Part shown: positions 16,855-62,094 of the stretch, piece by piece
Position numbering within the stretch: position 1 is the first letter of the stretch
How the letters are laid out: each line of letters opens with the position of its first letter
Assembly: GCA_018812715.1 (NCBI GenBank)
Contig: JAHJCT010000011.1
Coordinates: 114,614-178,613, forward strand
Reading direction: 5' to 3'
Source: Candidatus Micrarchaeota archaeon
GTDB lineage: Archaea > Micrarchaeota > Micrarchaeia > Anstonellales > Bilamarchaeaceae
Length of the DNA: 64,000 nucleotides
Made by a program: the position numbers and the translations under genes
Notes under the pieces: generated by a model
The model's input: the letters and a program-made list of their open reading frames with translations, nothing else
Database searches by the model: none
Told to the model about the DNA's origin: nothing

Positions 16855-16947
16855 TCTACCAACTCTCTAAACTGAGCATTGGAAAGCTCAAACTTCTGAA
16901 AAATGGACTTTCACTTGAAATGCTGTTTCAAGATTTTCCATTAAAAA

Positions 16948-17050
16948 TGGACTCGGGGGGAATCGCACCCCCGGCCTCTCCCATGCCAAGGGAGCGCTCT
17001 ACTGCTGCCCAATTTCTTTTTTATCTAAGAATTTTCTGAGCCACGAGCCC
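16948..17050 (-). tRNA. tRNA-Ala (anticodon GGC) with ~30-nt insertion (probable non-canonical intron) in the D-arm
   Basis: Minus-strand read: GGGCTCG-TG-GCTCAG[AAAATTCTTAGATAAAAAAGAAATTGGGCAGC]AGTAGAGC-G-CTCCC-TTGGCAT-GGGAG-AGGCC-GGGGG-TGCGATT-CCCCC-CGAGTCC-A. Acceptor stem pairs with the G3:U70 Ala identity pair, anticodon loop is TT-GGC-AT, discriminator A. Exact intron boundaries uncertain. T-loop has unusual G at 55. Confidence 0.65.
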
Positions 17051-39409: not shown

Positions 39410-39646
39410 GCCCTTGTAGCTCAGCGGTAGAGCGCGTCCTTGGTATCCCAACTTTTAGGAAACAACAAAGAACTTTGTTCTTTGTGCCCCATGAAAGCAT
39501 TGTTTTTATGTGGGAGTTGGATCAAAACTGGCCAAAGAGGACGAGGTCGCGAGTTCAAAAAACTTTCCCGATGAAATCTCATATTAAAGTGTTATCAAAC
39601 TTCATGAGTTGAAACTGGTCAAGTTTTGGAAATCTCGCCGGGGGCT
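39410..39646 (+). tRNA. tRNA-Thr (anticodon GGU) with two introns (92 nt at 37/38 and ~73 nt in the T-loop at ~59/60)
   Basis: Exons: GCCCTTG-TA-GCTC-AGCGGTA-GAGC-G-CGTCC-TTGGTA[39446..39537]A-GGACG-AGGTC-GCGAG-TTCAAA[39560..39632]T-CTCGC-CGGGGGC-T. All four stems pair (acceptor with two G-U). Mature length 72 nt. First intron contains a perfect hairpin CAAAGAAC-TTT-GTTCTTTG. Confidence 0.75.
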
Positions 39647-41930: not shown

Positions 41931-44900
41931 ATGCGCGCATATCTTTTATTATTATTGATGATTTTAGCAGGTTTATCTTTTTCTATCGACGTTTCAAGCT
42001 GTGAGAATATCACAGCACCTGGTGTTTATGAACTAACTACCAATCTTGTAGGTGCACCTAATAATGCCTCTGAAGTATCGAGTATTGACTGGGCATGTAT
42101 AAAGATAGCATCTTCAGACGTAGTCTTTGACTGTATGGGATATACAATAACAAACGACGGAACTCTAGCTGCTGCAGGTATCGTTGTTAATGGTTCTAGT
42201 GGAATTAACTATCCCAATGTAACAGTAAGAAACTGCCCTTCGATTACACAATATTACTATGGTATTTACATTTATCGAACTAATGAAACTACCGTCACAA
42301 ATGTAACATTGTATAACAACACATATTCATTTGCTTCCCTTATATCTGATTATCTTAATCTCACAAATAACACAGCTTACGATCAAACTGCTGGTTTTGA
42401 GATTATTGGTTGTGCTGGATGCAGTCTTATTGATAATGTTGTTTACGATATGTCAGATGTTGGTATTGCTAGCAGTGGCTGTTTTTATTGTAATTTTATA
42501 AATAATAGTATGTATGACGGCTCAGATTATGGATTTTATATTGAGCAAACTGGTGATACTAATTTTATCAATAACACAGTTTTTGATATCTCTAATGATG
42601 CATTTCATATCAGCGGTGCTAGTGATTGCAACTTCATAAACAATACAGTCTATAACAGCCTCGATGGTATGGACCTTTATATGACCAGCAATATGACTAT
42701 CATCAATAACTCATTTTATAACAACAATGAAGATGCTATTGAAATTTATGAAGGTGGCGATAACAATTTATCAAATAACGAACTCTATAACAATGAACGG
42801 GGCCTCAGCATATACAATGCTTCTGCAACACGTGTAATCGGAGATCATTATTATAACAACAGCATAGATATCTTCGTTAATGGAACAGGAATAACAGTCG
42901 ATCTTTCTGGTGTTATCTTTGATAATGATGCTGGAACACTGGCAGATTACACAAACATCTCTTTAACTGATACAGTTGCATCCATCTACACTATAGATCA
43001 CGCAGTTCAACCCGCAGCACTACCGCCCAATATGGCGTCATTTGAAAATAAATTTGTAAACATTACAAATCTAACAAGCGGGGTTTCAATAGATACTATT
43101 ATCTGGCACTGGACAGAGGCTGAAACTGCTGGTTATACTGAAGCTAACTTTGAATTATGGAAATATAATGTTTCAGGTTGGGCCGATACTGGTGCTACCC
43201 CCAATACCGCAACTAACACATTCACTTTAACAAATCTAAATCCGGCAAGCACTTATGCAATATTGCAAACAAGTGTTTGTCCAGTTATAAGTTCAAGCGG
43301 AACATATGCCCAACTAGGCGATCTTGTTGGCGCCCCCAATTCTGCAAGTCCAGTTTTCGGTTCTGTATGTGTAAAGATAACTGCATCTAATGTTGTCTAT
43401 GATTGTAATGGTTATAGTATCACTAATGACGGAACAGGTTCTGCTATGGGTATAATGATTGGCAGAACATCAGATCTTAATCCAGAAATAACAAATGTTA
43501 CCGTTAGAAACTGCCCAAGCGTTTCGCAATATACCTATGGTATTTATACTCGCGGAGCTAATGATAGTTTCATAATTAATTCTACAGTTCACAACAATGC
43601 CGGCTATGGTACTTTCTTTATGCTCAGTAATGATATCACTGTTATCAATAGCACCGCACATAGCAATGGACTTGATGGATTTTATACCTCTACAAGTTCC
43701 ACATTTACTAATTTCTCCAATAACACAGCTTATAACAACACTCGTAGTGGTTTTGTTCTTTTCCCGGGAGCTAATAGTACAGTTTTGGATAACACTGCAT
43801 ATAATAACACGGAATATGGTTTCTACTGGAGAATGAGTGGTGGTAGTAACGCCATCAATAACACAGCACACAACAACGGGCTGAGTGGCTTCTATCTTTA
43901 TGATTCAGATAACAATACTCTTTTGAATAATACAGCGTACAATAATTCAAATGAAGGTATTCTTCTCGTTGATTCCAATAACAATGAATTCAATAATAAT
44001 GAAGCATATGAAAATTATGTTGGTATCTCAACTTATCATTCAGACTACAATACTCTGCAAAATAACTCGGTTCATAACAATGTAATGACTGCCATTGTTG
44101 TAAATAGTTCTTCTTATAACAATTTGACTAACAATACTATCTATAATCATCGCGGAGCGATGGGGCCAGCATTTGGAATTTATGTTGAAGCATCATCATA
44201 TCAAAATCAAATTACAGATAATAACCTCACTAATAACACGGTTTGTATAGTCCTGGGGGCAACCAGAACTGCATTTAATGGCGGTAACAATTGGATAGTA
44301 AATAACACTATGACTGATGCATATATGGGTGTTTTCCTTTACCTAGCTGATAATACATCTGTAATAGAAAATCATATCAGCAATGTTCCGGAGACGAGTG
44401 CAATTATCGTTTTAGGTTCTGATATTTATGGCATGTTTGGCGGCGGATATCTAGGCGCTTACAACAATACTTTCATTGGCAATGTAATAGAAAACAGTAC
44501 TGGTTTCATTTTCTACATGGCAAATAACAATGTAATTCAGTCAAATATTATAGCAAATGCCACTGGCTACTTTAATTGGTCTGACGCAGGGATTTTAGAA
44601 AATTATACTGGTTTTTACTTCTATGAATCCAATTATTCAAATCTGTCTGACAATTTAGTATACAATCTTTCTGGTTACGCACTCCACATAATCGATTCAG
44701 AATCTGTTAATGCCTCTGATACACATGTTTATAACAATGATAGAGGTGCTCTGTTTGTTTCTGCTTCAGTAGCAACAAATCTTTACTTATCAAACTTCAC
44801 AATAGATAATCCATCAGGCAACTTCCAAAATTATACAAGCATCTCACTTACTGATGCTGTTGATGGTGACAGTAAATATACTATTAACTGGTCATTCAAT

Positions 44901-47900
44901 TCAACTGCTTTACCTGCCAATTACTTTTCATTTGAAGGGAAATATGTAGATATAAGTCAATACAAAGGAGGAGTACCTAGTATAATAGATTCAATTACAT
45001 GGACTTGGCTAAATTCAGAGTTGTCAGGATATGATGAATCCAGATTTGAATTATGGCAATATAATGGAACTTGGACCAATATGGGTGCAACATTGGATAC
45101 TGGAGCAAACGCATTGACAGTAACAAACCTGAATCCAGAAAGTACCTATAGTATACTACAAAGTAATCTGTCTACATGTATGCTGATCAATTCTTCAGGT
45201 TATTATCAACTTAATACTAATCTTCAGGGTGCTCCAATAAATGCTGCCCCTCTAACCGGAACTGCTTGTATAAAAATAAATAGTTCAGATGTAGTCCTTG
45301 ATTGTAATGGATTTACTATTACAAATAATGGAACTGCTGGAACTACAAGAGGTATTCTAGCGGTAGGTCCAATCTCAAACATAACAATTTTCAATTGTCC
45401 AGGAATTGCAAATTATACCAATGGTATTGAGGTCGTTGAATCTAATGATACCTTAGTTCTAAATAATACGGTCTATGAAATTGGCACCGATGGTTTAAGT
45501 GTAACAAACTGTACCAACTCTGAATTTATCAACAACACAGCTTACAATATTACAGATGATGCCTTTGACTTTTACAACTGTACCAATATTACAGTGATAA
45601 ATAATACTGGCTATTTGATATTTAGTGGTGACATCTTTGAAAATAGTCTTTGCAACAATTGTGATTTCATAGATAACAGTGCTCTTGGAGGATTCGCCGA
45701 TGCCTTTGACTTTAATTATTGTAATAATACAAACCTCATAAACAATACCTTAAGTTTTGCTTTAGATAATCTTGTGGAAGCAACCTATTCTATAAATTGG
45801 ACCGTAATTAACAATACACTTCACGATGCTGGAAACGATGCCTTTTTCTTTGGCGATGCTGTCAATATTGTTTTCCTAAATAATACTGTTCATGATATAC
45901 AAAATGAATTCTTTGATATTGAACTTTGTAGTAATTGTAACCTCACCAACAACACAGGTTACATGTCATATGCTGGGGGCGGACTTAATCTTATTGATTC
46001 CAATATCATTACAGTAACAAATAACACTTTCTATGATGTTACTCTTGATGCTTCATATGCAGAAAATTGTACTAATTGTAATTTCATAAATAACACCGCT
46101 TATAACTCCACTGATGCAGATATATTTGATTTCGACAGATGTACTAACCTTACAGTAATGAATAATAGTGGTTTTCTAACACTTAACAGCAACATCTTTG
46201 AAACTAGCCGCTGTAATAATTGTGATTTCATAAATAATCTTGCTATGGGGGCAATAATTAATGCTAGTAGCGCCTTTGACTTTGCTGCTTGTAATAATAC
46301 CAACATCATAAACAATAATGTAACCTGGAGTATTAATGATCTTGTGCAAGTAAGTTATTGTATAAACTGCAGTGTAATCAATAACACACTTTACTATGCT
46401 GGGGGAGATGGTTTTGCTCTTGGTAAATCTATCAATTTTACTCTTTTAAATAATACAGTCAATGGTGTTATAGATGACGGAGCTGATATAAAAGAGTTAA
46501 ATGATAGTATCATTAGAAATAATTTATTATATAATATATCTGATAACGGTATTGAATTTTCTGAATGTGATAATTGCACTCTAATCAACAATACTATTTA
46601 TAATGTAAGTATTAATGGCTATTACTTAGATGAGATGACTAATTGTGTTCTTATCAATAATACAGCCTATGATATTGGAGACGATGGATATGATGGTGGA
46701 GATTCAAGCAATACTAATTTCACAAATAATTTAGCTTATGATACTGGAGGTGACGGTTTCCAATTTGAAGACTCTACTAACATCATTTTCCTTAACAACA
46801 CAGCATACGACAACCCTGAGTTTGGGTTCAGCCTAAACAACTCGCCGAGCAACACTTTTGTCAATAACACAGCGTATAATAATGGATATGCTGGGTTTGC
46901 TGCATTCCTTGGCTCTAATGGCAATAATTTCACCAGAAACCTGGCTTACAACAATACTGGTTTTGCACTCCTTGAAGTTTATAATACCAATCTGGATTCC
47001 AATATTGCGAGAGATAGTGAGGGTTATGGGGTCCAGGTAATTGGTCTTATGCTAGGCATACCATTTGTTGATGATCTAGATGACGTTGGTTTCCTTTTCT
47101 ATGAATCCGATAGTTCTATTGTATTCAACAATAGTGCTTACAATTTCACAGGAAACATGAGCGGAGATGAAGAATCATATGGTTTTGTTGTTTACTTAAG
47201 CGACAATAACAACTTCACCAACAATCTTGCACATACTACTAATGATTCCGGCTTCTTATTGCTAAATTCATCTTACAATAATCTTACCAATAATACTGTA
47301 TATGACAACCGGGAAGCTGGAATAGCTCTTGAAGAGAATTGTACTTGGAATATTCTAACTAACAACACTGCCCACCATAATGGCCTTATCGGTATTAATC
47401 TACAAGATGGTCCTTTCGCAAACGGAATATATGGAACAAATGCTTATAGTAATGGCTGGTGTTCCTTCCAAATTTTTGATGCTGATACGAATGGCTTCAT
47501 TAACAATACAGTGACTAATGACACTGGTTTCATTGTCATATTTTCCAATGATACTCAAATCCTTTCAAATACTGTAGCCAACAGCAGTGGAAGTGGAGTA
47601 AGCTCTTATATACCAACAATTGATGATAGTGGTGTTGTTTTGATATACTCTAACTACACTAATATATCTGATAATGTGGTTTACAATTTAACCAACAACA
47701 CATCTCATGCTTTCTATCTTGATCAAAGCAATAACAATCTTCTCATAAATAATACAGCTTATATTAATGGAGAAACAGGTTTCTATGTGCACAACTCCCA
47801 TTACAATACCTTAGTGAATAATACTGATAACAACAACCATGAAGGTTTTATTATTGACAGTGGCTCGTCCTTTAATATTCTCTATAACAACACGGCCATG

Positions 47901-48446
47901 TTTGACAATGGTTATCAAGTACTTGGTGCTGCATTCAACAATTCACTGATTGATAATACGGCTTATTATATAGAAGACAATGGTTTCAGTGTAAAAAATG
48001 GTGGCTTCAATACTACATTGATAAACAATACTGCATTATTCAGTGATGAAGCAGGCTATCTCATTATGATGTCTGATAATAACACGCTTTTCAATAACAC
48101 TGCATATAACAACTATGCCAATGGTTTCGAAATATTTATGGCTGCGGATAATCACCTCATCAATAACACTGCATACGAAAATAATGAATCAGGTTATTCA
48201 ATTGGCATGAATCTAGTTCCAAACTACTTCTTCAACAACACCGCATACGACAACAACTTCACTGGTTTTATGATCATGCAGAATAATAATAGTGATTTCC
48301 AAAACAATACAGTTCATGACAATGGTCTCATGGGCTTCTTAATAGTCTTGGCTGGCCACAACAATTTCACTAACAATACAGCTTATGACGGCAATGTAAG
48401 TGGTTTCTGGCTGGGTATGGATTCACGTTACAATGTTTTCACATAA
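41931..48446 (+). CDS. giant secreted right-handed beta-helix (NosD/PbH1-like) repeat surface protein, N-terminal 2171-codon segment
   Basis: Signal peptide. Dozens of ~22-aa NNTAYNN..GF.L... parallel beta-helix repeats organised into three super-modules, each opening with C...(S/A)PG.Y.L..NL.GAP.NA(S/A). Ends at a single in-frame TAA, see findings. Confidence 0.7.
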   Translation: MRAYLLLLLMILAGLSFSIDVSSCENITAPGVYELTTNLVGAPNNASEVSSIDWACIKIASSDVVFDCMGYTITNDGTLAAAGIVVNGSSGINYPNVTVRNCPSITQYYYGIYIYRTNETTVTNVTLYNNTYSFASLISDYLNLTNNTAYDQTAGFEIIGCAGCSLIDNVVYDMSDVGIASSGCFYCNFINNSMYDGSDYGFYIEQTGDTNFINNTVFDISNDAFHISGASDCNFINNTVYNSLDGMDLYMTSNMTIINNSFYNNNEDAIEIYEGGDNNLSNNELYNNERGLSIYNASATRVIGDHYYNNSIDIFVNGTGITVDLSGVIFDNDAGTLADYTNISLTDTVASIYTIDHAVQPAALPPNMASFENKFVNITNLTSGVSIDTIIWHWTEAETAGYTEANFELWKYNVSGWADTGATPNTATNTFTLTNLNPASTYAILQTSVCPVISSSGTYAQLGDLVGAPNSASPVFGSVCVKITASNVVYDCNGYSITNDGTGSAMGIMIGRTSDLNPEITNVTVRNCPSVSQYTYGIYTRGANDSFIINSTVHNNAGYGTFFMLSNDITVINSTAHSNGLDGFYTSTSSTFTNFSNNTAYNNTRSGFVLFPGANSTVLDNTAYNNTEYGFYWRMSGGSNAINNTAHNNGLSGFYLYDSDNNTLLNNTAYNNSNEGILLVDSNNNEFNNNEAYENYVGISTYHSDYNTLQNNSVHNNVMTAIVVNSSSYNNLTNNTIYNHRGAMGPAFGIYVEASSYQNQITDNNLTNNTVCIVLGATRTAFNGGNNWIVNNTMTDAYMGVFLYLADNTSVIENHISNVPETSAIIVLGSDIYGMFGGGYLGAYNNTFIGNVIENSTGFIFYMANNNVIQSNIIANATGYFNWSDAGILENYTGFYFYESNYSNLSDNLVYNLSGYALHIIDSESVNASDTHVYNNDRGALFVSASVATNLYLSNFTIDNPSGNFQNYTSISLTDAVDGDSKYTINWSFNSTALPANYFSFEGKYVDISQYKGGVPSIIDSITWTWLNSELSGYDESRFELWQYNGTWTNMGATLDTGANALTVTNLNPESTYSILQSNLSTCMLINSSGYYQLNTNLQGAPINAAPLTGTACIKINSSDVVLDCNGFTITNNGTAGTTRGILAVGPISNITIFNCPGIANYTNGIEVVESNDTLVLNNTVYEIGTDGLSVTNCTNSEFINNTAYNITDDAFDFYNCTNITVINNTGYLIFSGDIFENSLCNNCDFIDNSALGGFADAFDFNYCNNTNLINNTLSFALDNLVEATYSINWTVINNTLHDAGNDAFFFGDAVNIVFLNNTVHDIQNEFFDIELCSNCNLTNNTGYMSYAGGGLNLIDSNIITVTNNTFYDVTLDASYAENCTNCNFINNTAYNSTDADIFDFDRCTNLTVMNNSGFLTLNSNIFETSRCNNCDFINNLAMGAIINASSAFDFAACNNTNIINNNVTWSINDLVQVSYCINCSVINNTLYYAGGDGFALGKSINFTLLNNTVNGVIDDGADIKELNDSIIRNNLLYNISDNGIEFSECDNCTLINNTIYNVSINGYYLDEMTNCVLINNTAYDIGDDGYDGGDSSNTNFTNNLAYDTGGDGFQFEDSTNIIFLNNTAYDNPEFGFSLNNSPSNTFVNNTAYNNGYAGFAAFLGSNGNNFTRNLAYNNTGFALLEVYNTNLDSNIARDSEGYGVQVIGLMLGIPFVDDLDDVGFLFYESDSSIVFNNSAYNFTGNMSGDEESYGFVVYLSDNNNFTNNLAHTTNDSGFLLLNSSYNNLTNNTVYDNREAGIALEENCTWNILTNNTAHHNGLIGINLQDGPFANGIYGTNAYSNGWCSFQIFDADTNGFINNTVTNDTGFIVIFSNDTQILSNTVANSSGSGVSSYIPTIDDSGVVLIYSNYTNISDNVVYNLTNNTSHAFYLDQSNNNLLINNTAYINGETGFYVHNSHYNTLVNNTDNNNHEGFIIDSGSSFNILYNNTAMFDNGYQVLGAAFNNSLIDNTAYYIEDNGFSVKNGGFNTTLINNTALFSDEAGYLIMMSDNNTLFNNTAYNNYANGFEIFMAADNHLINNTAYENNESGYSIGMNLVPNYFFNNTAYDNNFTGFMIMQNNNSDFQNNTVHDNGLMGFLIVLAGHNNFTNNTAYDGNVSGFWLGMDSRYNVFT

Positions 48447-50816: not shown

Positions 50817-51374
50817 TCAAGAAATTTGTTCTTTTAGGATAAAATAAAGATCAAAATAATCACGTGGCTGGTTTCTTGTTATGGCAGCCCTGAGTTTTTC
50901 TGCTATGAGTTCATTGAAATTAAGAACATTTATTTCAAAATCCAAATTATAGAAATTATGAACTTTTTTCCTATCTATTTTGATGTGAATTGATGCTTTT
51001 CTATTTGCATCTAGAATAATATAATTGTTATTTGAAAAATAACTCTGATAAAAGATTTTAATTCTTACAAAATTCCTGCTTTCATTTTCATATTCTATCC
51101 TTCTGAAATGTTTTTTGTCATTTTTAACAATTTCTTCTATTTTTGCCTTAATCTGGGTTATTGGAATAGTTGCTGTAAAATCTGCATCTTCAGAAAGACG
51201 CATGTGGTCTAAGAAAATTTTATTCAGGGCAGTTCCACCTTTGAAATATATCCCTTCAAAATCTTTCAGATGATAGAGCAAGATTGTTAGGAAATAATCT
51301 TTTTCCAGATATATAAGATTATATCCAGTTTCAGCTGCAATATTCCGAAGTTTTGCTTCATTTATCCGATCCAT
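50817..51374 (-). CDS. AbiEii-family nucleotidyltransferase toxin (type IV toxin-antitoxin, DUF1814)
   Basis: IYFKGGTALNKIF is the GGTAL signature of the AbiEii/DUF1814 nucleotidyltransferase. 185 aa, downstream of and overlapping the putative antitoxin. Confidence 0.6.
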   Translation of the reverse strand: MDRINEAKLRNIAAETGYNLIYLEKDYFLTILLYHLKDFEGIYFKGGTALNKIFLDHMRLSEDADFTATIPITQIKAKIEEIVKNDKKHFRRIEYENESRNFVRIKIFYQSYFSNNNYIILDANRKASIHIKIDRKKVHNFYNLDFEINVLNFNELIAEKLRAAITRNQPRDYFDLYFILKEQIS

Positions 51375-51907
51375 TTTTTACTTTCCCTCTTTGATGCGAT
51401 TAAAAAATCATGGTCCTTTATTTTCCTTTTAACTGTTTTTCCTAATTTTCTCACTCGTCTAAACTTGAACACAGAGCCAAGTATTTTCATTGTCCCTTGT
51501 TTTTTTGTAGAAAATACATCTATAACTGTGGGCAACTGATCTATCAACCCCCAATAATTTGCAGCTGCTTTGCCACCTATGTAGTAATCCTTTCCATTGA
51601 ACATTTCATCTGCTATGATGAATGGGTGTTCTGCCCAGCCTTTGTAGGCCTTTATCGGAATCAAGTAATATTTTTCCTTGTTTATTCTCTCAATTCTTCT
51701 TTTTTTCCTTAGCCTGTGTACGTAAACATTCAATTCATTGTCAGATGTAAAAAACTTTCTGATGTCCTTCTTTGAGAAAAATCTTTTTTCCTCTAGTTCA
51801 AGGTATGAAACTACTTCAATTTCTTTGTTTGACAAACCTTTGATACGATGCTTCGTATCAAATTTTGGCGCAGTTTTTTGCAATCCTTTGATTTTCTTCT
51901 TAGTCAT
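51362..51907 (-). CDS. AbiEi-like antitoxin/transcriptional regulator
   Basis: ...YYIGGKAAANYWGLIDQLPTVIDVFS... matches the AbiEi C-terminal domain pattern (Y.sl.sAl.y.GL.dq.p..i.v). Basic N-terminus. Gene order antitoxin then toxin with 13-nt overlap. Confidence 0.5.
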   Translation of the reverse strand: MTKKKIKGLQKTAPKFDTKHRIKGLSNKEIEVVSYLELEEKRFFSKKDIRKFFTSDNELNVYVHRLRKKRRIERINKEKYYLIPIKAYKGWAEHPFIIADEMFNGKDYYIGGKAAANYWGLIDQLPTVIDVFSTKKQGTMKILGSVFKFRRVRKLGKTVKRKIKDHDFLIASKRESKKWIG

Positions 51908-52152: not shown

Positions 52153-52306
52153 TGGCGCCCCAACGGCGATTTGAACGCCGAATTCAACCTGTCAGCTTGG
52201 CCTTTCGGTGAGAAACACCCAAAAAAACGAGAATGTGTTTTAGGGCGCCGTTTCCCAAAAGGCGCAACCGCAGGGTTGCGTCCTATCCAGATTAGACTAT
52301 TGGGGC
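52153..52306 (-). tRNA. tRNA-Arg (anticodon GCG) with 77-nt intron at the canonical 37/38 position, CCA encoded
   Basis: Minus-strand exons: GCCCCAA-TA-GTCT-AATCTGGATA-GGAC-G-CAACC-CTGCGG[intron]A-GGTTG-AATT-CGGCG-TTCAAAT-CGCCG-TTGGGGC-G-CCA. All stems Watson-Crick or G-U. T-loop TTCAAAT. Confidence 0.75.
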
Positions 52307-52420
52307 TCTAGAGACATATTTAAATATGTATAGCTTTTAAATATTGTCTACACTTCTGAGGTTAAAATAGCCTCAAGTGAATCTTTCTAGACGATTGTAT
52401 TTGTTGTTTTAGGTGATATA

Positions 52421-52567
52421 TTGCAAAGATGTATAACTTGCGGAAGAAATACTAAGAACTTCGCTCAGTTCCCCTGTGCAGAGTGCAGTGAGAAGATCAT
52501 TAGATGTGACTTCTGCAGAGAAAATAGAAACAAATATACTTGCAAGTGTGGCTTTACCGGCCCGTAG
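52421..52567 (+). CDS. small Zn-ribbon protein (4x Cys pairs) upstream of aEF-1beta
   Basis: TTG-initiated 48-codon ORF: (M)QRCITCGRNTKNFAQFPCAECSEKIIRCDFCRENRNKYTCKCGFTGP*. CxxC...CxxC...CxxC...CxC spacing. Position immediately 5' of aEF1beta resembles the conserved archaeal Zn-ribbon/EF1B gene pair. Confidence 0.45.
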   Translation: MQRCITCGRNTKNFAQFPCAECSEKIIRCDFCRENRNKYTCKCGFTGP

Positions 52568-52575
52568 GTGTAATG

Positions 52576-52833
52576 ATGGCAGAATATAACGTTGTAGCAC
52601 AATTGAAAGTTTATGTTGAAAATCCCGAACAAATGGACTCTGTAAAAACTGGTATAGAAAATCTTGCAAAAGTCCAGGATTTTAAGGAAGAGGATGTTGG
52701 TTTTGGTATCAAAGTACTCAAGGTTACCATCCTTATGATGGATTCTGAAGGCGGGATGGATGAATTAGAAGAAAAAATAAAAACTCTTGAAAATGTAAGT
52801 CAAGTTGAAGTTGAAGGCGTCAGCAGGGTGTAA
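52576..52833 (+). CDS. ef1b: elongation factor 1-beta (aEF-1beta)
   Basis: MAEYNVVAQLKVYVENPEQMDSVKTGIENLAKVQDFKEEDVGFGIKVLKVTILMMDSEGGMDELEEKIKTLENVSQVEVEGVSRV, archaeal EF1B length and conserved AFGLKAL-like core. Start at internal Met of the track ORF. Confidence 0.85.
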   Translation: MAEYNVVAQLKVYVENPEQMDSVKTGIENLAKVQDFKEEDVGFGIKVLKVTILMMDSEGGMDELEEKIKTLENVSQVEVEGVSRV

Positions 52834-52835
52834 TC

Positions 52836-53387
52836 ATGGCAAAAAAAGTTCCTAAAAAAACTAAAAAACCTGAAAAAGAAGAAAATGAAAATTTCAGAGG
52901 TATTGTTCGTATTGCAGGAAAAGATGTGAATGGAAAAGTAACTCTTAAAAGAGCCCTTCATCGTGTTAGAGGTATTGGACACACCATGGCACATGTGGCA
53001 GCCTTGGCAATCACAAAAGAGCTTTCTTTAGATCCACTTAAACCTATTGGAGAATACACTGAAGCTGATATAGAAAAAATTGATAAGATTCTATTTAGTA
53101 TGCAAGATCATAATGTTCCATCATTTCTCTTAAATCGCTGCAAGGATTTCAATTCCGGCGATAATAAGCATGTAATTATGAATGATCTCATATTTGAAGT
53201 AAATCAGGATGTTGATAGAGATAAAAAGATGTACTCCTGGAAAGGTTATAGGCATTCTTATGGGCAAAAAGTTAGAGGCCAAAAAACCAGAAACACAGGT
53301 AGAAGTGGTATGGCCCTTGGTGTTCTAAGAAAATCAATTATAGCAGCACAAGGAGGCGCCAAAGAACCAGCAAAGGAGAAGAAGTGA
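52836..53387 (+). CDS. rps13: 30S ribosomal protein S13 (uS13)
   Basis: FRGIVRIAGKDVNGKVTLKRALHRVRGIGHTMAHVA is the uS13 N-terminal signature. Basic C-terminus. Confidence 0.9.
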   Translation: MAKKVPKKTKKPEKEENENFRGIVRIAGKDVNGKVTLKRALHRVRGIGHTMAHVAALAITKELSLDPLKPIGEYTEADIEKIDKILFSMQDHNVPSFLLNRCKDFNSGDNKHVIMNDLIFEVNQDVDRDKKMYSWKGYRHSYGQKVRGQKTRNTGRSGMALGVLRKSIIAAQGGAKEPAKEKK

Positions 53388-53391
53388 TAAC

Positions 53392-53961
53392 ATGGGAGAC
53401 CCACCTAAATTCAGAAACAAATTTGAACGACCAAAGAAACTTTGGGATGTAGATCGCATTAGACATGATTCTGCTCTAAAGAATGAATATGGCCTCAAAA
53501 ACATGAGTGAAATCTGGAGAGCTAACGAAGAGCTCAAAAAATACAGACGAGAGGCAAGGCGACTTCTTTCTGTAACAGAAGAGGAAAGACGTGATGATGC
53601 ACAGAAAATACTTCAAAAACTTGATAAATTTGGCATCCTAAAAAAAGGCTCATCTATTGATGATGTACTTTCTCTTGAAGTGCGCGTAGTTCTTGAAAGA
53701 CGATTACAAACCTTGTTAGTGCGCAAGGGTCTGGCCAGAACAATGGTTCAAGCAAGACAACTAGTTACACACGGCTTCGTATCACTAGGCGGAAGAAAAA
53801 TTACCCGCCCTGGTTATATGGTAACCGTTCATGAAGAACCAACAATTGCTTATGTTCGTGCTATTGATTTAAGTGTTAGACCTGAAGAAGAATCAAGTAA
53901 GGAAGAAAAACCTAAACCAGATTTAACTGAAGAAACAAAGCCAGAAGAAAAGGTGAACTAA
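53392..53961 (+). CDS. rps4: 30S ribosomal protein S4 (uS4)
   Basis: [23 protein letters not shown]...[16 protein letters not shown]... uS4 N-terminus, plus S4 RNA-binding domain ([30 protein letters not shown]). Confidence 0.9.
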
Positions 53962-54410
53962 TGGCAGAAGAACCAAAAGAGGAAAAAAAGCCAGAAGAAA
54001 AAACAGAAGAAGTAAAGAAACCTAAAAAACGCAGGTATGCTGTCATACACGTTTATTCTTCAAAAAATGATACAATAATCACCGCGACTGATCTCAGCGG
54101 GGCTGAAACTCTTGCATGGGCAAGTGGTGGAATGGTTGTAAAATCTCATCGCGAAGAAGGAAGACCATACGCAGCAATGCAAGCGGCTCTTAGAGTCGTT
54201 ACCAATCTTAAAGATAAGGGCATAACTAATGTTACTGTAAAAATCAGGGCGCCGGGCGGTGTTGGACTTAAAACACCTGGTTCGGGGGCACAGGCAGTTG
54301 TTAGAACTATTGCAAGGACCGGGGTTCGTATTGGAAGAATCGAAGACGTCACACCCTTACCCACGGACTCTATGAAGAGAAAGGGCGGAAGAAGGGGAAG
54401 AAGAGTATGA
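53961..54410 (+). CDS. rps11: 30S ribosomal protein S11 (uS11)
   Basis: ...[32 protein letters not shown]...[28 protein letters not shown] matches uS11. Start overlaps S4 stop (TAATG). Confidence 0.9.
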
Positions 54411-55102
54411 AATTGGTTCTTGATAAAAAACACGAAAATAGGGTTGAGTTCCTGGTGGATGGTATCTCTTTACCATTTGCAAATATGTTGAGGAGATATG
54501 CTATCTCTTCTATCCCAGTGCTTGCTGTTGATTCTGTAGTTTTTTATGATAATAATAGTGCTTTCTGGGATGAATATCTTGCACATCGTCTTGGATTAAT
54601 GCCAATTATTACACCTGAAAAACTTCCTGAAAGTACAGAAATCGTATTTACTCTGGATGCTGAAGGGCCTAAAATAGTTTATGCAAGTGATATGAAGAGT
54701 TCTGATAAAGAAATTTCTATTGCTAAAGATAAATTACCATTTGTTACCTTAGGACCAAATCAACATGTTAGATTAGAAGCTAAAGCAATTCTTGGTACTG
54801 CAAAGCAACATGCTAAATTCCAGGCAGGAATTGTTAGCTATGGTGAAGATGGCAAAGGTCTTAGATTTACAGTGGAAAGCTTCTTCCAAATGACTCCAAC
54901 CGATGTTTTACAGCGTACTTGTGATGTAATTGAAAGCGATATCAATGATGTAGAAGCTGCCCTTGGTGAAACAAAACCTGTTAAAAAATCTAAGAAAAAG
55001 AAGACTGAAGAAACGGTAGAACCAAAGAAGGAAGAAAACGTTGAGGAAGAAGAAAAACTAAAGAAAACTGAAGCTAAGGAAAAATCCAAGAAAAAGAAAT
55101 AA
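54407..55102 (+). CDS. rpoD: DNA-directed RNA polymerase subunit D (Rpo3)
   Basis: ...[46 protein letters not shown]... matches the RpoD/Rpb3 dimerisation domain. Lys-rich C-terminal tail. Follows S11 as in the conserved S13-S4-S11-RpoD operon. Confidence 0.85.
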
Positions 55103-55110
55103 CTATTTTC

Positions 55111-55312
55111 GCAGGGGTGGCAGAGCGGCCAAATGCGCCAGCTTGAGGAACTTTTTTGGAAAAAAGTTCCACCAAAAACTGATTGTTTATGGTGGTTATC
55201 CAAATAAGTTGCGAAATGTTTAGGAAATAGCAGCCTGTTTTGGTTTCGCTTTTCCTAAAAGCGGAAGGCTGGTGGGTTAGTCCCTACGAGTGTTCGAATC
55301 ACTTCCCCTGCA
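55111..55312 (+). tRNA. tRNA-Leu (anticodon GAG), class II with long variable arm and ~118-nt anticodon-loop intron
   Basis: GCAGGGG-TG-GCA-GAGCGGCCAAA-TGC-G-CCAGC-TTGAGG[intron ~55149..55266](G/A)-GCTGG-TGGGTTAGTCCCTAC-GAGTG-TTCGAAT-CACTT-CCCCTGC-A. Acceptor fully paired. Intron begins with a perfect hairpin AACTTTTTT-GG-AAAAAAGTT. Starts 9 nt after the rpoD stop. Confidence 0.7.
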
Positions 55313-56532: not shown

Positions 56533-59500
56533 ATGCGATTTACATATTTTGTCTTGATTTTGGCTTTAATTAGCTTGGGATTTGCCATCTCACCTTTGGC
56601 CATTGATGTTCTAGAACCTGCTGGTGATATAGAAATAAACCAAAATAGAATATACAATGTAACTGTTAATGTATCATGTAATGTTGGAGATTGTGGAGAT
56701 GTTAATGTCTCTTTGGATAATTTTCCAACTTCATGTAAAGCAATCTTAGATCTAGGTCAAAGTATTGGCGATGGAGAGTATACTATATACCCAGCCAATC
56801 ATCCTTCTGGAATAGATGTTTATTGTGATATGACCACTGATGGCGGGGGTTGGACCTTGGTATTTGCAGGTATGGGAAGCACCTCAACTTATGCTTCTAC
56901 CTGGTCAGGCTGGTTTTCTGAAGGTTCAACCACAGAAATAACTGATAAAAGCACCGAAGGAAAAAGTCCAGCATATGATAGTGTTACAGTGAGTACTTTA
57001 ATGCTGGAGTCAACTTATGGAACAGACGGAATAATTATCGCAGATTTAGATCAAACTTATTCCAGTCTTCTGGATCTGGTTGGACCTGATCCAGGGTATA
57101 ATGATGGAAGCACTTCCTGGGATAATGGATTAAAAGGGCCATTTACTGCCAATTATCCTCATACTGGTGATCATTTTGTTAATGATTGGATTAGGATATG
57201 GGTTGGAGATGGAGATTATGATGAGCAGGATAGAGTTGTTTTTGCTACCCAACTTGGTGAAGGGGACTGGTCTGGTCATGATAATCCCGGTGCAATTGGC
57301 GGCGAATACCAAACAGCAAGAGATGGAAGTGATTGGTACTACGTATGGGTGAGAGAAGAAGGCACATATGAATCGTATTCTGATGTCATTACGATAAATA
57401 ATGGCGAATCCGAAATCGTAATCTTTTCAGTAAATGCAACTGTTATCGGAAATTACACTTATTATGCTTATGCAGAAGAGGTTTCTAACCCATCTGTCAA
57501 CACAACTAGTAGCACCTGGAATGTAACTGTATATCCCCCTATACAGGTTATTTTTTCATCTCCAGGAAAATATGTTTCTGGCAATGATGTTACCGTAAAT
57601 CTCACCACAAGGTATTTTGTGGAAGGTCTAGACAGTATCTGGTGGAATAATGGAACAGCAAACCAGACATATTCAGGAGAAACTACTGACTATTATCCAG
57701 ATGGGTTTTATACATTTACTGCATATGCCAATGACAGTGCTGGTTATCTGGCCTCAACAATACTAAATTTCAACGTCAATATATGTGGTTTGGAACTTGA
57801 TTCTGATTATACACTTGAATATGATCTTGATTGCAGTGAATATTCTGAAGCTGCAGTTATTATTACTGAAGAAAATGTTACTCTTGATTGTGATGGCCAT
57901 TCAATAATCGGTCCTGGTTATGATACAGGAGTTTATTCCGAGTATGATAATACTATTATACAAAATTGCATTATAAGTAATTTTAATGAAGGTATACAGT
58001 TCTATGATTCTTCTAATGGCTTTATAATCAACAATACTTTTGACTCAAATTATTATGGTCTTTGGCTTGGGGAAAACTCAGATAATAATATAGTTACTTA
58101 CAATACTTTCACTTCAAATGATTATGGATTTTATTTAGAATTTGCCGATAACAACCAAATAGGGCATAACACAGTTGATATGTCGTATTCTAATTTTGGT
58201 GATTCTTCCTGTCCCTTTGTTTATGCATGGAATGGCGAAGAGTATGACTTCATAACTGATTTTTCCAGCAGTGGCAGATTAGCAGCTTCGAGTAAGGGAA
58301 CCCCAAGGGTCTACTATGACTATGTGAAACTTTCAAATGAACAATTAAAACCAGAATCTGGTTTTTACCAAATTCAATTAACAGAAGAATACGATGAAAT
58401 CTCATATGTCGATGAGCTCACATTAATTACAATAGACCATCCATCTGATTATGATGTTTACACTGGATTTACTATGGATGATAAAAGCGATATTTATACA
58501 GTTAGCAAAACTTTATTGCCAATTGAATCATGTGTGGATGAATCAGGGCAGGATTGTACGTCTGAAGTTTCTACCAAGGATGGCATATATACTGAAAAAG
58601 CAGATGGTGTAAATAAAAAAACATTTGAGCTTGATCTTGGTGATCTTTCAGAAGATGTTAAATTAGTTATAACTTATGCAAAAGCTCTCGACCTTGATCT
58701 GGATGACGAGACAAGATCAATTCAGATAAAAAATTCAGAAGGTGTTTGGACTGATTTATATACTCATTCCGAGTTAATCTCTTCTCCAAATGCCCCAAAT
58801 ACCTATGTTCTTGATCTTACTGGGTTATTGGTCTATGATAATTCAGTAAAATTAATACTTCCAGAAGGATTAATTGACTATCTTGCAGTTGATACTTCGC
58901 CACAACAAGAAGTAGTTGTAAACGCATATTCTCCTGATTCTGCAAATCTACACTACCATGGTTATTCTGAAGATATTAGCAACGATGTAGTTGATTATGA
59001 TTATTATTCTCTTGCATCACTTCGAAATAACGAACCCACTGGTTACTTCACTAAATATGGAGATGTTAACGAACTCCTTACTTCAACTGATGATATGTAC
59101 GTTATCATGCACGATGGTGATGAGATTTCAGTTGAATTCCAATACAATGCTCCAGAAGAGGGGATGACAAGAGATTTCCTTGTTTACAGCTGGTATTACT
59201 ACAAACCTGCAAAGAAATTTTTAGATGATTATACTGTTGATCCATTACCATTTGTTGGCATGAGCACTTATCCATATCCAGAAGGAGAAACTTACCCACA
59301 AGATGAAGAACATCAAGCTTATCTTTCGGAATGGAATACCCGATATTACGAAAGACCAATGAGAATGGGCGGCTCATTACCGTATTCCTTCAATAATACA
59401 GTATTTGAAAATACTATTATAGGAAGTAGTTCTGGTTATGGTTTATATCTATACGAGGAAGATTCAACATTGTTGCTAAATAACAATATCTCAGATGTAG

Positions 59501-62094
59501 AGATTGGTATTTATCTAGAGGATTCAAGTTATACTTTAATTAGTGGAAACAATATATTCGATGTCGAAACAGGTATGTACCTTGGTGATTCTGATTATAA
59601 TGAAATCTATGAAAATGAAATAGAAGCTTTTGAGGGCAGAGGAATTAATGTTAGGTACTCTGATTACAATGAAATCTTTGATAATATACTCTTTGTAGAC
59701 AGTACCGATAATTGTGATTATGGCGGACCTGGCTGTGGAGGAATTTATGTCGTTGGCTGTTCTTATGTGAACATAATCACTGACAATGACATTACTTCCC
59801 TTTATGGTCATGGTATTGCTATCGGTGGTTGTGGCGAAGACAACGACTTCATTGGCAATACGCTAACTATAACTAACGATGAAAGCAACTACTACGCATT
59901 CTATGCCTTTGAAGGTGGTGATGGCTGTTCTTACTACAATACTTTCTTACACAACAGAATTTTCAGCGATTACTGGATCTATGATGATTGTGATGGAAAT
60001 GACTATAGCGATGATTATTCAGGAAATATCTACTATTTTGCAGATGCAACTCCAAGCTGGGAAGTGTACGATGATCTTTATGATACTACAGACCCAGAAG
60101 ATGGTTGGGCAGATGAAGGAGATTTTGTACCATTTAGTTATGGTACTTTAGAAGATGAAGATCTGTGGTATGATTATGGTGAAGATTGGCATCCAGCACT
60201 AACAGATGACCCATCCATACATTCAGTTGATGTTGAATTAGTTTCTCCTGAAGATGAAGCACAAGCGTTAAGTCCGATTATTTTTACTTACATACCATCA
60301 GTTGGCTGGGAAGGCCAAACTATCGAAAATTGCGATATAACTGTTCAAACTGTTGAAGGAGGAGAAGTAACTGAAATAGATCCAGGTGAACAAGATGGTT
60401 TAGTTGCTTTATGGCACTTTAACGATGATTATCTTGATTCATCAGGAAATGGCCATGATGGAACTCCTGAAGGTGATACTTATCTCACTCCTGATTCGCG
60501 ACTTGGCGATGGTGCGGTATTTCTAGATGGTGATCTTGATTATGTATCAGTGCCTGATTCAGGTGATTTTGATGATGGCCCTGATCTTACCTTTGCTGCA
60601 TGGGTACATTTTGATGGAGAATCTACAAATTGGAATAGAATAGTTTCAAAACGTCTAGATTGTTGTGATGGAGAACCGGGTTGGGAGATCACTCTCGATG
60701 GTGGTGATGGCACAGATATTTATGTATCTGATAATGGCTGGGGAGGATTTATCAACGGCCAGTGTGTTGACAGCTGGACTGATGGTAATTGGCACCATGT
60801 TGCTGTTACATACGATGAAGATACTGCATCAGTATATTGCGATGGTGAGTTCAAATTTTCAGGAGCAGTTAATTCAATAAGTCCAAATGACCAAGATTTA
60901 CTTCTCGGCAAAATTGAATCAGAAGATAGTACTAGTTGGGTTGGTGCTATGGATGAAGTTGCCATCTGGAATCGTGCTCTCTCAGAAGATGAAGTGGAAG
61001 AACTTTATACTAGCTATACTTACTATACTGACTCTTCCTCTTCAATAGATGAAGGTGAAGAAAATACATTCACAATGGAATTACCTGATGGTGAATATTA
61101 TTGGAGTGTTGAATGTACTGATAATCTGGATATAACTGGAGAATCGGAAACATGGCTTTTAACAGTTGGTGAAGAAGAACCTCCAGAAGAAGATGGTAAT
61201 CCATCTCCTTCAAAACCACAACTTTCAATTGATCTAGATAGTTCCTGTGAAGACAACACAATAACCGTTACAAGCAATGGCGATGAAGTTGCCGGCGTTT
61301 CAGCAACTGTCCTTAATTACGATACTATGACCAACATTGCAAGTGGAAACACAGATGCAAATGGTGAACTGAGCTTCAGTGATTGCGGCAAAACTGTAAA
61401 AGTAAGTGCTTCAAAATCAAATTACAAGTCTGCAACTGGCATATACACACTTGATGACTGCTGTGAAGAAGAACAAGTTGGTTGTATAGATGATTCAGAT
61501 TGTCTTTCAACAAAAGAATGTGTTAATGGTGCCTGCGTTGCTGTTGAATGTGAATGTGGCACAGTTCAAAACCACCAATGTGTTCCATATGACTGTTGCT
61601 TAGATTCAGACTGCAATGAAGGTGAAGTTTGTACTGAACATGCGTGCGTATCGGTTCCTGTTGAGCCAGAATGCACTTCTAATGATGACTGTGCTTCAGG
61701 AATGGAATGTAGTAATGGAATTTGCATTGAAGTCGAACCACCTGAGGATCTTGAAGATTTAGCGACCCAAACAATAAATACTGCTCAAGACGCAATAGAT
61801 ACTGCCAAATCAGAAGGCAAAGATACAAGTGAGGCAGAAGCAAAGCTTGCAGCAGCATGGGCCGCATATGAAGCAGGCAATTTTGAAGAAGCAAAAAATC
61901 TTGCAGAAGAAGCAAAGCAATTGGCACTCAATGCAGCTGCACAACCAGCAAATCAAACAGGAACAGAAATTGAAGTTACTGAAACTCAACAAGACAATAA
62001 TGTCGTCTTTGTAACTGTTTTCTTACTATTGGTATTAGCAGCATTATGCATTTACTGGGTTGTCTCACGAAAACCTGCTAAGAAGAAAAAATAA
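56533..62094 (+). CDS. giant mosaic surface protein: signal peptide, fibrinogen-related domain, beta-helix repeats, LamG/ConA-like lectin domain, Cys-rich modules, TM anchor and KKKK tail
   Basis: 1853 aa. SGIDVYCDMTTDGGGWTLVFAGMG is the fibrinogen C-terminal-domain hallmark. NosD-like beta-helix repeats (NCIISNFNEGIQFYDSSNGFIINNTFDSNYYGLWLGENSDNN...). LamG-like block (LDGDLDYVSVPDSG...LTFAAWVHFDG...WHHVAVTYDEDTASVYCDGEF). C-terminal Cys-rich module homologous to the 48447..50114 tail. TM VVFVTVFLLLVLAALCIYWVV followed by SRKPAKKKK. Confidence 0.65.
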   Translation: MRFTYFVLILALISLGFAISPLAIDVLEPAGDIEINQNRIYNVTVNVSCNVGDCGDVNVSLDNFPTSCKAILDLGQSIGDGEYTIYPANHPSGIDVYCDMTTDGGGWTLVFAGMGSTSTYASTWSGWFSEGSTTEITDKSTEGKSPAYDSVTVSTLMLESTYGTDGIIIADLDQTYSSLLDLVGPDPGYNDGSTSWDNGLKGPFTANYPHTGDHFVNDWIRIWVGDGDYDEQDRVVFATQLGEGDWSGHDNPGAIGGEYQTARDGSDWYYVWVREEGTYESYSDVITINNGESEIVIFSVNATVIGNYTYYAYAEEVSNPSVNTTSSTWNVTVYPPIQVIFSSPGKYVSGNDVTVNLTTRYFVEGLDSIWWNNGTANQTYSGETTDYYPDGFYTFTAYANDSAGYLASTILNFNVNICGLELDSDYTLEYDLDCSEYSEAAVIITEENVTLDCDGHSIIGPGYDTGVYSEYDNTIIQNCIISNFNEGIQFYDSSNGFIINNTFDSNYYGLWLGENSDNNIVTYNTFTSNDYGFYLEFADNNQIGHNTVDMSYSNFGDSSCPFVYAWNGEEYDFITDFSSSGRLAASSKGTPRVYYDYVKLSNEQLKPESGFYQIQLTEEYDEISYVDELTLITIDHPSDYDVYTGFTMDDKSDIYTVSKTLLPIESCVDESGQDCTSEVSTKDGIYTEKADGVNKKTFELDLGDLSEDVKLVITYAKALDLDLDDETRSIQIKNSEGVWTDLYTHSELISSPNAPNTYVLDLTGLLVYDNSVKLILPEGLIDYLAVDTSPQQEVVVNAYSPDSANLHYHGYSEDISNDVVDYDYYSLASLRNNEPTGYFTKYGDVNELLTSTDDMYVIMHDGDEISVEFQYNAPEEGMTRDFLVYSWYYYKPAKKFLDDYTVDPLPFVGMSTYPYPEGETYPQDEEHQAYLSEWNTRYYERPMRMGGSLPYSFNNTVFENTIIGSSSGYGLYLYEEDSTLLLNNNISDVEIGIYLEDSSYTLISGNNIFDVETGMYLGDSDYNEIYENEIEAFEGRGINVRYSDYNEIFDNILFVDSTDNCDYGGPGCGGIYVVGCSYVNIITDNDITSLYGHGIAIGGCGEDNDFIGNTLTITNDESNYYAFYAFEGGDGCSYYNTFLHNRIFSDYWIYDDCDGNDYSDDYSGNIYYFADATPSWEVYDDLYDTTDPEDGWADEGDFVPFSYGTLEDEDLWYDYGEDWHPALTDDPSIHSVDVELVSPEDEAQALSPIIFTYIPSVGWEGQTIENCDITVQTVEGGEVTEIDPGEQDGLVALWHFNDDYLDSSGNGHDGTPEGDTYLTPDSRLGDGAVFLDGDLDYVSVPDSGDFDDGPDLTFAAWVHFDGESTNWNRIVSKRLDCCDGEPGWEITLDGGDGTDIYVSDNGWGGFINGQCVDSWTDGNWHHVAVTYDEDTASVYCDGEFKFSGAVNSISPNDQDLLLGKIESEDSTSWVGAMDEVAIWNRALSEDEVEELYTSYTYYTDSSSSIDEGEENTFTMELPDGEYYWSVECTDNLDITGESETWLLTVGEEEPPEEDGNPSPSKPQLSIDLDSSCEDNTITVTSNGDEVAGVSATVLNYDTMTNIASGNTDANGELSFSDCGKTVKVSASKSNYKSATGIYTLDDCCEEEQVGCIDDSDCLSTKECVNGACVAVECECGTVQNHQCVPYDCCLDSDCNEGEVCTEHACVSVPVEPECTSNDDCASGMECSNGICIEVEPPEDLEDLATQTINTAQDAIDTAKSEGKDTSEAEAKLAAAWAAYEAGNFEEAKNLAEEAKQLALNAAAQPANQTGTEIEVTETQQDNNVVFVTVFLLLVLAALCIYWVVSRKPAKKKK

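Follow-up and report, generated by a model that had tools for sequence, protein, structure and literature searches.

Every tRNA gene in the window, a 64,000-nucleotide (64-kb) stretch of Candidatus Micrarchaeota archaeon contig JAHJCT010000011.1 (assembly GCA_018812715.1, positions 114,614 to 178,613 of the forward strand), is interrupted. The window holds exactly four such genes, for Ala-GGC, Thr-GGU, Arg-GCG and Leu-GAG, and they carry five introns altogether. We read these as ordinary archaeal introns, removed by proteins at bulge-helix-bulge (BHB) motifs, and we place the introns of tRNA-Leu and tRNA-Arg, and possibly the first of the two in tRNA-Thr, in an apparently mobile intron family that extends across the clade; we put the probability of this reading at about 85%. 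A sequence-only reading of the same DNA had already reported four interrupted genes, on which ARAGORN in intron mode, Rfam, a scan for G+C-rich islands and in-silico splicing agree. What it had not foreseen is that the Leu intron is a conserved, structured RNA element.

Four interrupted tRNA genes

Default ARAGORN and Rfam at its gathering threshold each returned no tRNA call in the window. ARAGORN in intron mode recovered tRNA-Arg(GCG) at 52153-52306(-) with an intron of 77 nucleotides (nt), and a gene at 55111-55312(+) with a 118-nt intron; the label Ser(GGA) given to the latter is a phasing error, the intron-less orthologues giving Leu(GAG). A permissive Rfam search exposed a tRNA-like 3' half at 16945-17050(-), where the sequence reads as tRNA-Ala(GGC) with a G3:U70 pair and an insertion in the D-loop, and tRNA-Thr(GGU) emerged from the scan for G+C-rich islands (window G+C 36.6%) combined with reading of the sequence. 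T-arm and acceptor scans, together with inspection of the larger intergenic gaps, gave neither a fifth tRNA nor an intron-less one in the window. Once the introns were removed in silico, intron-blind ARAGORN called Ala-GGC, Thr-GGU, Arg-GCG and Leu-GAG, all four canonical; because every excision gives back a full cloverleaf with matching acceptor strands, coincidence is excluded. The genes and introns are as follows.

16948-17050, minus strand: tRNA-Ala(GGC) gene, G3:U70; exon 1 17050-17036, exon 2 17004-16948, discriminator A at 16948 (permissive Rfam, sequence, spliced ARAGORN call)
17005-17035, minus strand: Ala intron, 31 nt, at a non-canonical D-loop site between nucleotides 15 and 16 (BHB enumeration, constrained fold)
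39410-39646, plus strand: tRNA-Thr(GGU) gene with two introns; exons 39410-39445, 39538-39559 and 39633-39646 (G+C-island scan, spliced ARAGORN call, orthologue at related locus L009)
39446-39537, plus strand: Thr intron 1, 92 nt, canonical position 37/38 (strict BHB)
39560-39632, plus strand: Thr intron 2, 73 nt, T-loop position 59/60 (BHB; position shared with L009)
52153-52306, minus strand: tRNA-Arg(GCG) gene; exon 1 52306-52268, exon 2 52190-52153 (ARAGORN intron mode, intron-less orthologues)
52191-52267, minus strand: Arg intron, 77 nt, position 37/38 (relaxed BHB; matches to family profile and model)
55111-55312, plus strand: tRNA-Leu(GAG) gene, directly 3' of rpoD; exon 1 55111-55148, exon 2 55267-55312 (ARAGORN, orthologues)
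55149-55266, plus strand: Leu intron, 118 nt, position 37/38 (match to model R1, intron-less orthologues)

The lengths that the sequence-only reading gave for the Arg and Leu introns are borne out by ARAGORN intron mode and by the junctions of orthologues. Other details of that reading require correction: the range 52153-55312, to which it had assigned all four genes, holds only Arg and Leu; a length of 77-118 nt does not cover the 31-nt Ala intron at its non-canonical D-loop site; and one intron per gene does not hold for Thr, with 92 nt at 37/38 and 73 nt at 59/60, so that there are five introns in all. A TTTAAATA box lies upstream of the tRNA-Arg(GCG) gene, and the 3' CCA is encoded only in tRNA-Arg (52153-52155(-)), the Ala, Thr and Leu genes having no encoded CCA.

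Exon-intron junctions

In the archaeal BHB motif each cut falls two nucleotides 3' of one strand of a 4-bp helix. The five window junctions were placed by this rule and, where they exist, by intron-less orthologues. Relatives that carry tRNA-Leu(GAG) without an intron have the anticodon loop UUGAGG|G, which fixes both the identity of the Leu gene and its 37/38 junction, and the Arg 37/38 junction is likewise fixed by orthologues without an intron. Thr intron 1 presents a strict BHB (central helix UUGG/CCAA, bulges UA|U and AG|A), for which a constrained fold gave a free-energy difference (ddG) of +3.0 kcal; Thr intron 2 has the central helix UUCA/UGGA with bulges AA|A and AA|U (ddG +2.4 kcal, constrained fold). 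The Ala intron has an HBh' motif with the central helix GCUC/GGGC and bulges AG|A and AG|C (ddG +2.2 kcal, constrained fold), its register being ambiguous by 2-4 nt. A naive exhaustive BHB scan was rejected as evidence, since it returned many chance motifs and did not discriminate without the cloverleaf constraint.

The spliced tRNA-Ala(GGC) is itself unusual: its D-loop, AGCAGUA, lacks the usual G18, and position 55 of its T-loop, UGCGAUU, is a G. The two changes could compensate for each other where the loops make contact, or the true junction could lie 2-4 nt away.

A group I or group II self-splicing intron was rejected for all five cases: there is no Rfam match, and the introns are only 31-118 nt long. 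Introns of those groups are typically longer than 200 nt and have a catalytic core.

The same genes in other Micrarchaeota

The RpoD protein encoded beside tRNA-Leu matches, at 100% identity, a protein recorded under Candidatus Micrarchaeota archaeon, and its homologues are from Micrarchaeota. A scan of one genome per species yielded 52 related loci (given here by L numbers), nearly all of them labelled Micrarchaeota, Micrarchaeia or Bilamarchaeum, with RpoD identities of at most 71%; the closest metagenomic relatives reach 74-75%. The sequence-only reading had pointed to a lineage with expanded tRNA introns and had listed several candidates; DPANN stands, on both RpoD and the relatives, and Thermoproteales, Korarchaeota and Asgard fall away.

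Two conserved slots allowed the genes to be tracked across relatives, the Arg gene upstream of the S13-S4-S11-rpoD operon and the Leu gene just after rpoD. tRNA-Leu(GAG) is intact in about 36 of about 45 loci and interrupted in nine, the window included, with intron positions and sequences that vary: at 37/38 in the window and L009, in the D-loop in L011, L022 and L030, in the T-loop in L025 and L032, and with several introns in L036 and L037. In the closest relatives, L054 and L055, the gene is intact and only 1 nt away from the joined exons of the window, which identifies the 118-nt Leu intron as a recent gain private to the window lineage. The Arg(GCG) gene shows the opposite balance, being interrupted in about 21 of 26 Micrarchaeota loci and intron-less in about five; relatives carry up to three introns in it (D-loop, 37/38 and T-loop), and the gene then spans up to 294 nt for a 74-nt tRNA. 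For tRNA-Thr(GGU), the L009 gene (L009:45-263) has introns at both window positions, with 68 of 72 exon positions identical and a perfect UUCA/UGAA central helix at 59/60, whereas the introns themselves have diverged beyond recognition (z = 2.7 and 1.3). The Thr(GGU) introns are, by these comparisons, old and fast-decaying.

The sequence-only reading had implied an intron frequency of 100%, and it is very unlikely that essentially every tRNA gene of this genome or lineage carries a long intron. All four window genes are disrupted, and in the relatives' loci introns are present in at least 64% of the non-anchor tRNAs called by ARAGORN, as that proposal would have it; yet about 80% of relatives have an uninterrupted Leu(GAG) gene and about 20% an uninterrupted Arg(GCG) gene, and intron-less Leu-CAG, Leu-UAG and Ser-CGA genes are present in the relatives' loci. 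In ARMAN-2 (Candidatus Micrarchaeum acidiphilum), 56% of tRNA genes are interrupted, with introns at 59/60 and multi-intron genes among them (PMC3239211); at that background four of four would be expected about 10% of the time. The clade is intron-rich, yet far from 100%.

ARAGORN in intron mode misnamed or mis-phased genes at many related loci (L003, L017, L022, L025, L029, L030, L039, L040, L058 and L069), reporting Arg-GCG as Cys, Ser, Gly or Thr and Leu-GAG as Ser, Phe or Gly, and calling genes with T-loop or D-loop introns intron-less. Automated tRNA inventories of Micrarchaeota are unreliable because of such errors.

A separate element of about 85 nt lies directly upstream of intact tRNA-Leu(GAG) genes (L004:10779-10864, L005:10695, L012:2037, L017:10680 and L040:10740) and is not present in the window. 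Its opening stretch, GCAGGGGTGGCRG, repeats roughly the first 13 nucleotides of the tRNA, and two hairpins come after it; the element could represent a remnant of integration or recombination, a structured leader or a small RNA gene.

A modular, pseudo-palindromic intron family

The Arg introns of relatives share a layout at both ends. Right after the 5' splice site stands a hairpin whose stem is G+C and whose top reads UUUU-NGG-AAAA, and CCAAAAC comes next; at the 3' end the order is mirrored, with GUUUUGG ahead of a hairpin. Long versions are collinear throughout (hairpin 1, CCAAAAC, UUGNAAAACCC-loop-GGGUUUUG, an AUUUU...AAAAU hairpin, UAGCAAG-N4-GUUUUGG, hairpin 3), and an alignment (A5) of six introns from Arg, Thr-UGU and Val-GAC genes, that is from three tRNA species, has 53 invariant columns.

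From these six introns, which come from other genomes and include no window sequence, a covariance model (R1) was built; it is home-made and its E-values are rough. R1 matched the Leu intron end to end (55146-55267, model positions 1-130) at 44.9 bits and E = 2.3e-7; with the Arg intron the match was marginal, at 27.3 and 23.2 bits (E about 1e-3 to 6e-3). No other part of the window fell below E = 0.3, the Thr and Ala introns being unmatched. On the opposite strand of the Leu intron the model still scored 40.4 bits, and the near-equal scores on the two strands show the Leu element to be pseudo-palindromic. R1 found further members in 12 additional loci. A profile built only from the termini of the relatives' Arg introns matched the Leu intron at its 3' end (E = 1.8e-4) and the Arg intron at its 5' end (E = 6.3e-4), and across the 1.56 Mb searched (780 kb, both strands) every significant match to this profile lay inside tRNA genes. 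An exact-pattern scan of metagenomes gave 18 matches, of which 11 fall within genes for tRNA-Leu(CAG), tRNA-Thr(UGU), tRNA-Thr(CGU) and tRNA-Val(GAC).

The Leu intron is a full-length family member, with hairpin 1 at 55149-55168, then CCAAAAAC, further on UAGCAG-CCU-GUUUUGG, and finally hairpin 3, UUUCGC-UUUUCCUAAAA-GCGGAA. The hairpin that the sequence-only reading had seen at its 5' end is real (AACUUUUUU/AAAAAAGUU), and two G:C pairs from the exons can extend the stem. The Arg intron is a shortened member in which hairpin 1, GCGCC-UUUUGGGAAAC-GGCGC, is followed by CCUAAAAC. In Thr intron 1 the 5' part, CCCAAC-UUUUAGGAAAC...AGUUGG-AUCAAAAC, resembles a family hairpin 1 with a large insertion when compared by eye with L069 and L074; R1 gave it no significant match, and it possibly belongs to the family. 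Pairwise comparison among the window's own five introns gave no significant similarity.

Overall, family members range from about 50 to 190 nt, occur in genes for Arg-GCG, Thr-UGU, Thr-CGU, Val-GAC, Leu-CAG and Leu-GAG, and occupy D-loop, 37/38 and 59/60 positions. Rfam holds no matching family at E up to 1, either in the window or in five family-bearing loci, and we found no description of such an intron family in Micrarchaeota in the literature searched.

The stem of the terminal hairpin covaries: 96% of cells are paired as against 62% in shuffles, and four of the five pairs have changed on both sides, as counted in an equal-length, hand-made alignment (MAFFT lost the terminal stem register) that carries some selection bias and with a register picked to maximise pairing. 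None of 500 shuffles matched the observed score, and the signal collapses when the register is slid. A conserved rod-like helix joining the 5' and 3' ends was considered and rejected, since the terminal stems of L019 are not mutually complementary and each stem covaries separately.

This architecture might also have arisen by convergence, if the splicing machinery or the stability of the excised circle selected the same hairpins and CCAAAAC/GUUUUGG motifs in introns of independent origin. The terminal hairpins do flank both splice sites symmetrically, like the two-fold symmetry of an endonuclease dimer, their stems covary with fixed loops, and hairpin 3 in some members lends its 3' strand to the central BHB helix, where it serves as the intron strand. 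Selection at the splice sites would not, however, account for collinearity over the full length (the 53 invariant columns), which includes internal hairpins and a UAGCAAG motif with no obvious role there, nor for z-scores of up to 32 between different host genes, and the motifs are missing from other introns that the same machinery would process (Thr-GGU, Ala and the L009 Leu intron). We consider convergence quite unlikely.

A trans-acting cargo is a further possibility and one compatible with the main reading: the long introns would be kept for a small RNA, either a box C/D guide or a stable circular RNA. The conservation of the family far exceeds the decay of non-family introns at similar host divergence, and its conserved loop and linker motifs hint at constraint beyond base pairing. 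Against this stand deletion derivatives of 46-77 nt that persist without the internal hairpins, the lack of C (RUGAUGA) and D (CUGA) boxes on inspection and of Rfam matches in the window and the five family-bearing loci, and a failure to identify target complementarity, all of which make a cargo unlikely. The suggestion in the sequence-only reading that the Leu intron is large enough to host a small RNA accordingly finds no support for box C/D or any Rfam family; its own remark that no box C/D pair was evident there is upheld by inspection and Rfam alike, and the covariance-model scan of the introns against Rfam that it had proposed matched no family.

Two arrangements of family modules were seen elsewhere. 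A metagenomic tRNA-Thr(CGU) gene (L065:2176-2289) has the 5' module in a D-loop intron and the 3' module in a 37/38 intron, with exon sequence between them, and R1 spans both at 58 bits. Outside tRNA genes, a 62-nt unit is repeated in tandem at L064:1178-1264 and L072:6-154; the unit includes the intron-module motif CCCCTTTTGGGAAAAGCGGCACCAAAAC, and the spacers are identical.

Probable movement of introns between tRNA genes

Similarity between introns was expressed as local z-scores, gap-permissive global identity being uninformative. By this measure family members in different tRNA genes score z = 12-32, and the orthologous, non-family Thr(GGU) introns score z = 1.3-2.7 at similar host divergence. 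The Leu intron is closest to the Thr(UGU) intron of L069 (z = 12.1, 87 of 134 columns identical) and shares its last six bases, GCGGAA, with the Arg intron of L006. In L006 the GCGG pairs perfectly with the Arg anticodon loop sequence CUGC, whereas the same bases form a weak helix with UUGA in the Leu loop, as would be expected if the Leu intron had been imported from another tRNA gene. The insertion sits exactly at 37/38 without a target-site duplication, and the flanking exons equal the uninterrupted orthologue.

Reportedly, Fujishima 2010 (Mol Biol Evol 27:2233) described tRNA-intron transposition in Thermoproteales. From the presence of the family in several tRNA genes and at several positions we conclude that it spreads between genes, and the data argue for intron transposition between tRNA genes as the simplest reading, as proposed for Thermoproteales according to PMC4090602 and PMC4033280. 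The introns might move by reverse splicing and subsequent recombination, or tRNA genes might exchange them by gene conversion. We hold in even balance the more specific proposal that the Leu and Arg introns are copies of an undescribed, Rfam-absent, structured RNA element that colonises Micrarchaeota tRNA genes, whether as a selfish mobile intron or as an intron-borne, probably circular, functional RNA. If this were true, a selfish mobile intron would rely on the splicing endonuclease of its host for harmless removal.

Probable splicing, its difficulties and the endonuclease

We infer both the splicing itself and the type of enzyme. Each gene would give rise to a long pre-tRNA transcript, in which a broad-specificity splicing endonuclease would cut two nucleotides 3' of each strand of the 4-bp exon-intron helix; an RtcB-type ligase would join the exons and probably circularise the intron, and the products would be Ala-GGC, Thr-GGU, Arg-GCG and Leu-GAG.

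Several observations weigh against this account and against the family origin joined to it. The central helix of the Arg intron, CUGC/GCUG, has one U.U mismatch (orthologues have GCAG) and fits only the relaxed class (ddG +6.4 kcal); that of the Leu intron, UUGA/GCGG, has two G.U pairs and an A.G, making it the weakest BHB of the five and again of the relaxed class only (ddG +9.1 kcal), and we assume that the Arg and Leu pre-tRNAs are cleaved at these imperfect helices. Runs of T on the sense strand lie inside both introns, T7 in Arg (52221-52227(-)) and T6 in Leu (55152-55157(+)), and by sequence these tracts resemble terminators of archaeal RNA polymerase; family introns generally contain several U4-U7 runs. 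Pfam scans of 40 window proteins gave no endonuclease or RtcB ligase gene in the window, and a near-identical donor for the Leu intron did not turn up. The rough E-values of R1 and the stem register chosen to maximise pairing count on the same side.

An alternative is that tRNA-Leu(GAG), perhaps with tRNA-Arg, is a pseudogene killed by an insertion resembling a miniature inverted-repeat transposable element (MITE), one that splicing cannot remove. Such an insertion would be in keeping with the inverted-repeat-like ends of the Leu element (44.9 as against 40.4 bits on the two strands), with its poor BHB and internal T6 run, and with its absence from about 36 orthologous genes. It would hardly be expected to land exactly at 37/38 without target-site duplication, or to leave exons intact and 1 nt from functional orthologues; the conserved slot after rpoD holds, moreover, no other Leu(GAG) gene, and this tRNA is needed to read CUC and CUU. 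Leu(CAG) genes that contain a family intron, with a central helix just as weak, are retained in L058 and L070, and enzymes of the same phylum cut relaxed motifs (PMC3239211). We regard a pseudogene as highly improbable and retain the reading of functional, protein-spliced introns.

From the positions of the Ala intron and Thr intron 2 and the helices of the Arg and Leu introns it follows that the endonuclease must accept non-canonical sites and relaxed motifs. The epsilon2 endonuclease of ARMAN-2 cuts relaxed motifs (PMC3239211; PMC12397907), and endonuclease architectures are diverse across DPANN, where incomplete tRNA sets point to undetected disrupted genes (PMC5829648). Among relatives of the window, a single-unit PF01974 homologue of EndA, about 165-170 amino acids (aa) long, is encoded near rpoD (L030:13148-13708 and L031:3571-4182). 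It has about 95 homologues of 124-184 aa, found among others in the metagenome-assembled genomes of L004, L021, L034 and L049; all 18 that were aligned have Arg or Lys at the position of the catalytic His, a Tyr position that varies and an invariant Lys, and this suggests that the His-less protein of about 165 aa is a structural, beta-like subunit. The catalytic unit of ARMAN-2 (from the 4FZ2 alignment), used as a query, led to catalytic-like proteins of 180-225 aa that stand alone and resemble the ARMAN-2 alpha unit; some of them bear the annotation Micrarchaeota tRNA-intron lyase. Both queries, the EndA of a relative and the ARMAN-2 unit, gave only single-unit proteins of 80-231 aa and no three-unit epsilon protein, in a word-seeded search that may miss others. 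Many Micrarchaeota may, on these sequences, use a two-subunit enzyme rather than epsilon2.

Other features of the window

Immediately beyond the 3' end of tRNA-Arg, across an A+T-rich spacer (24% G+C), lies an AbiEii toxin/AbiEi antitoxin pair (50817-51907(-)). The 3' ends of tRNA genes are common integration sites, and this region may be the edge of an integrated element. The window also encodes two very large predicted proteins, of 2171 aa (41931-48446(+)) and 1853 aa (56533-62094(+)); in the latter a signal peptide and beta-helix-like repeats go with a C-terminal membrane anchor, a combination often found in DPANN surface proteins.

Significance

Standard pipelines find zero tRNAs in these 64 kb, and ARAGORN in intron mode misnames or misses many such genes. 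'Missing' tRNAs of DPANN archaea are often hidden disrupted genes, because standard tools overlook or misname interrupted ones, and such hidden genes affect both completeness estimates and claims of host dependence. The clean presence/absence polymorphism at Leu, together with a family spread across unrelated tRNA genes, adds to Thermoproteales a second, phylogenetically distant example of tRNA-intron mobility. A well-defined structured element can be modelled and traced, which renders the gain of protein-spliced introns, a long-open question, more tractable. The part worth pursuing is the modular and apparently mobile intron family.

Comparison with known systems

The split and permuted tRNA genes of Nanoarchaeum equitans and Caldivirga resemble the window genes in being disruptions in DPANN and other archaea that the same endonuclease resolves. 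A split-gene or internal-promoter reading of the window genes was rejected: the exons are collinear and adjacent, and introns of 31-118 nt leave no room for a promoter.

In Haloferax and other Euryarchaeota the tRNA-Trp intron contains a box C/D guide RNA. The window introns are like it in that a long, conserved 37/38 intron is more than a spacer, and unlike it in lacking C, D, C' and D' boxes and any match to an Rfam snoRNA.

With MITEs the family shares small size, the lack of coding capacity, inverted-repeat-like termini, a high copy number and presence/absence polymorphism between relatives. It differs from them in making no target-site duplication, in inserting at tRNA-gene positions able to form a BHB, and in having all its significant copies in about 0.8 Mb of sampled DNA inside tRNA genes.

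The mobile introns of Thermoproteales, as reviews describe them, are likewise without target-site duplication, and there too the BHB requirement defines the possible targets. The window belongs to DPANN and not to TACK, and its family reaches about 190 nt, is pseudo-palindromic and has covarying terminal and conserved internal hairpins, a comparison drawn from reviews.

The closest counterpart is ARMAN-2, from the same phylum, with a high fraction of interrupted genes, introns at 37/38 and at non-canonical positions including 59/60, and several introns per gene (Fujishima et al. 2011, PMC3239211; Hirata et al. 2012, PMC3488258; PMC12397907); its BHB motifs, too, are relaxed and require a broad-specificity enzyme. 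The window represents another, non-acidophilic branch, with an RpoD at most 75% identical to that of any sampled relative. The ARMAN-2 enzyme is a three-unit protein of about 390 aa (alphaN-alpha-betaC), whereas searches in the branch of the window gave stand-alone catalytic-like proteins of 180-225 aa and His-less ones of about 165 aa. The literature searched describes no conserved intron family in ARMAN-2. The core finding is a new instance of a phenomenon already published for Micrarchaeota, and the intron family is the part added to it.

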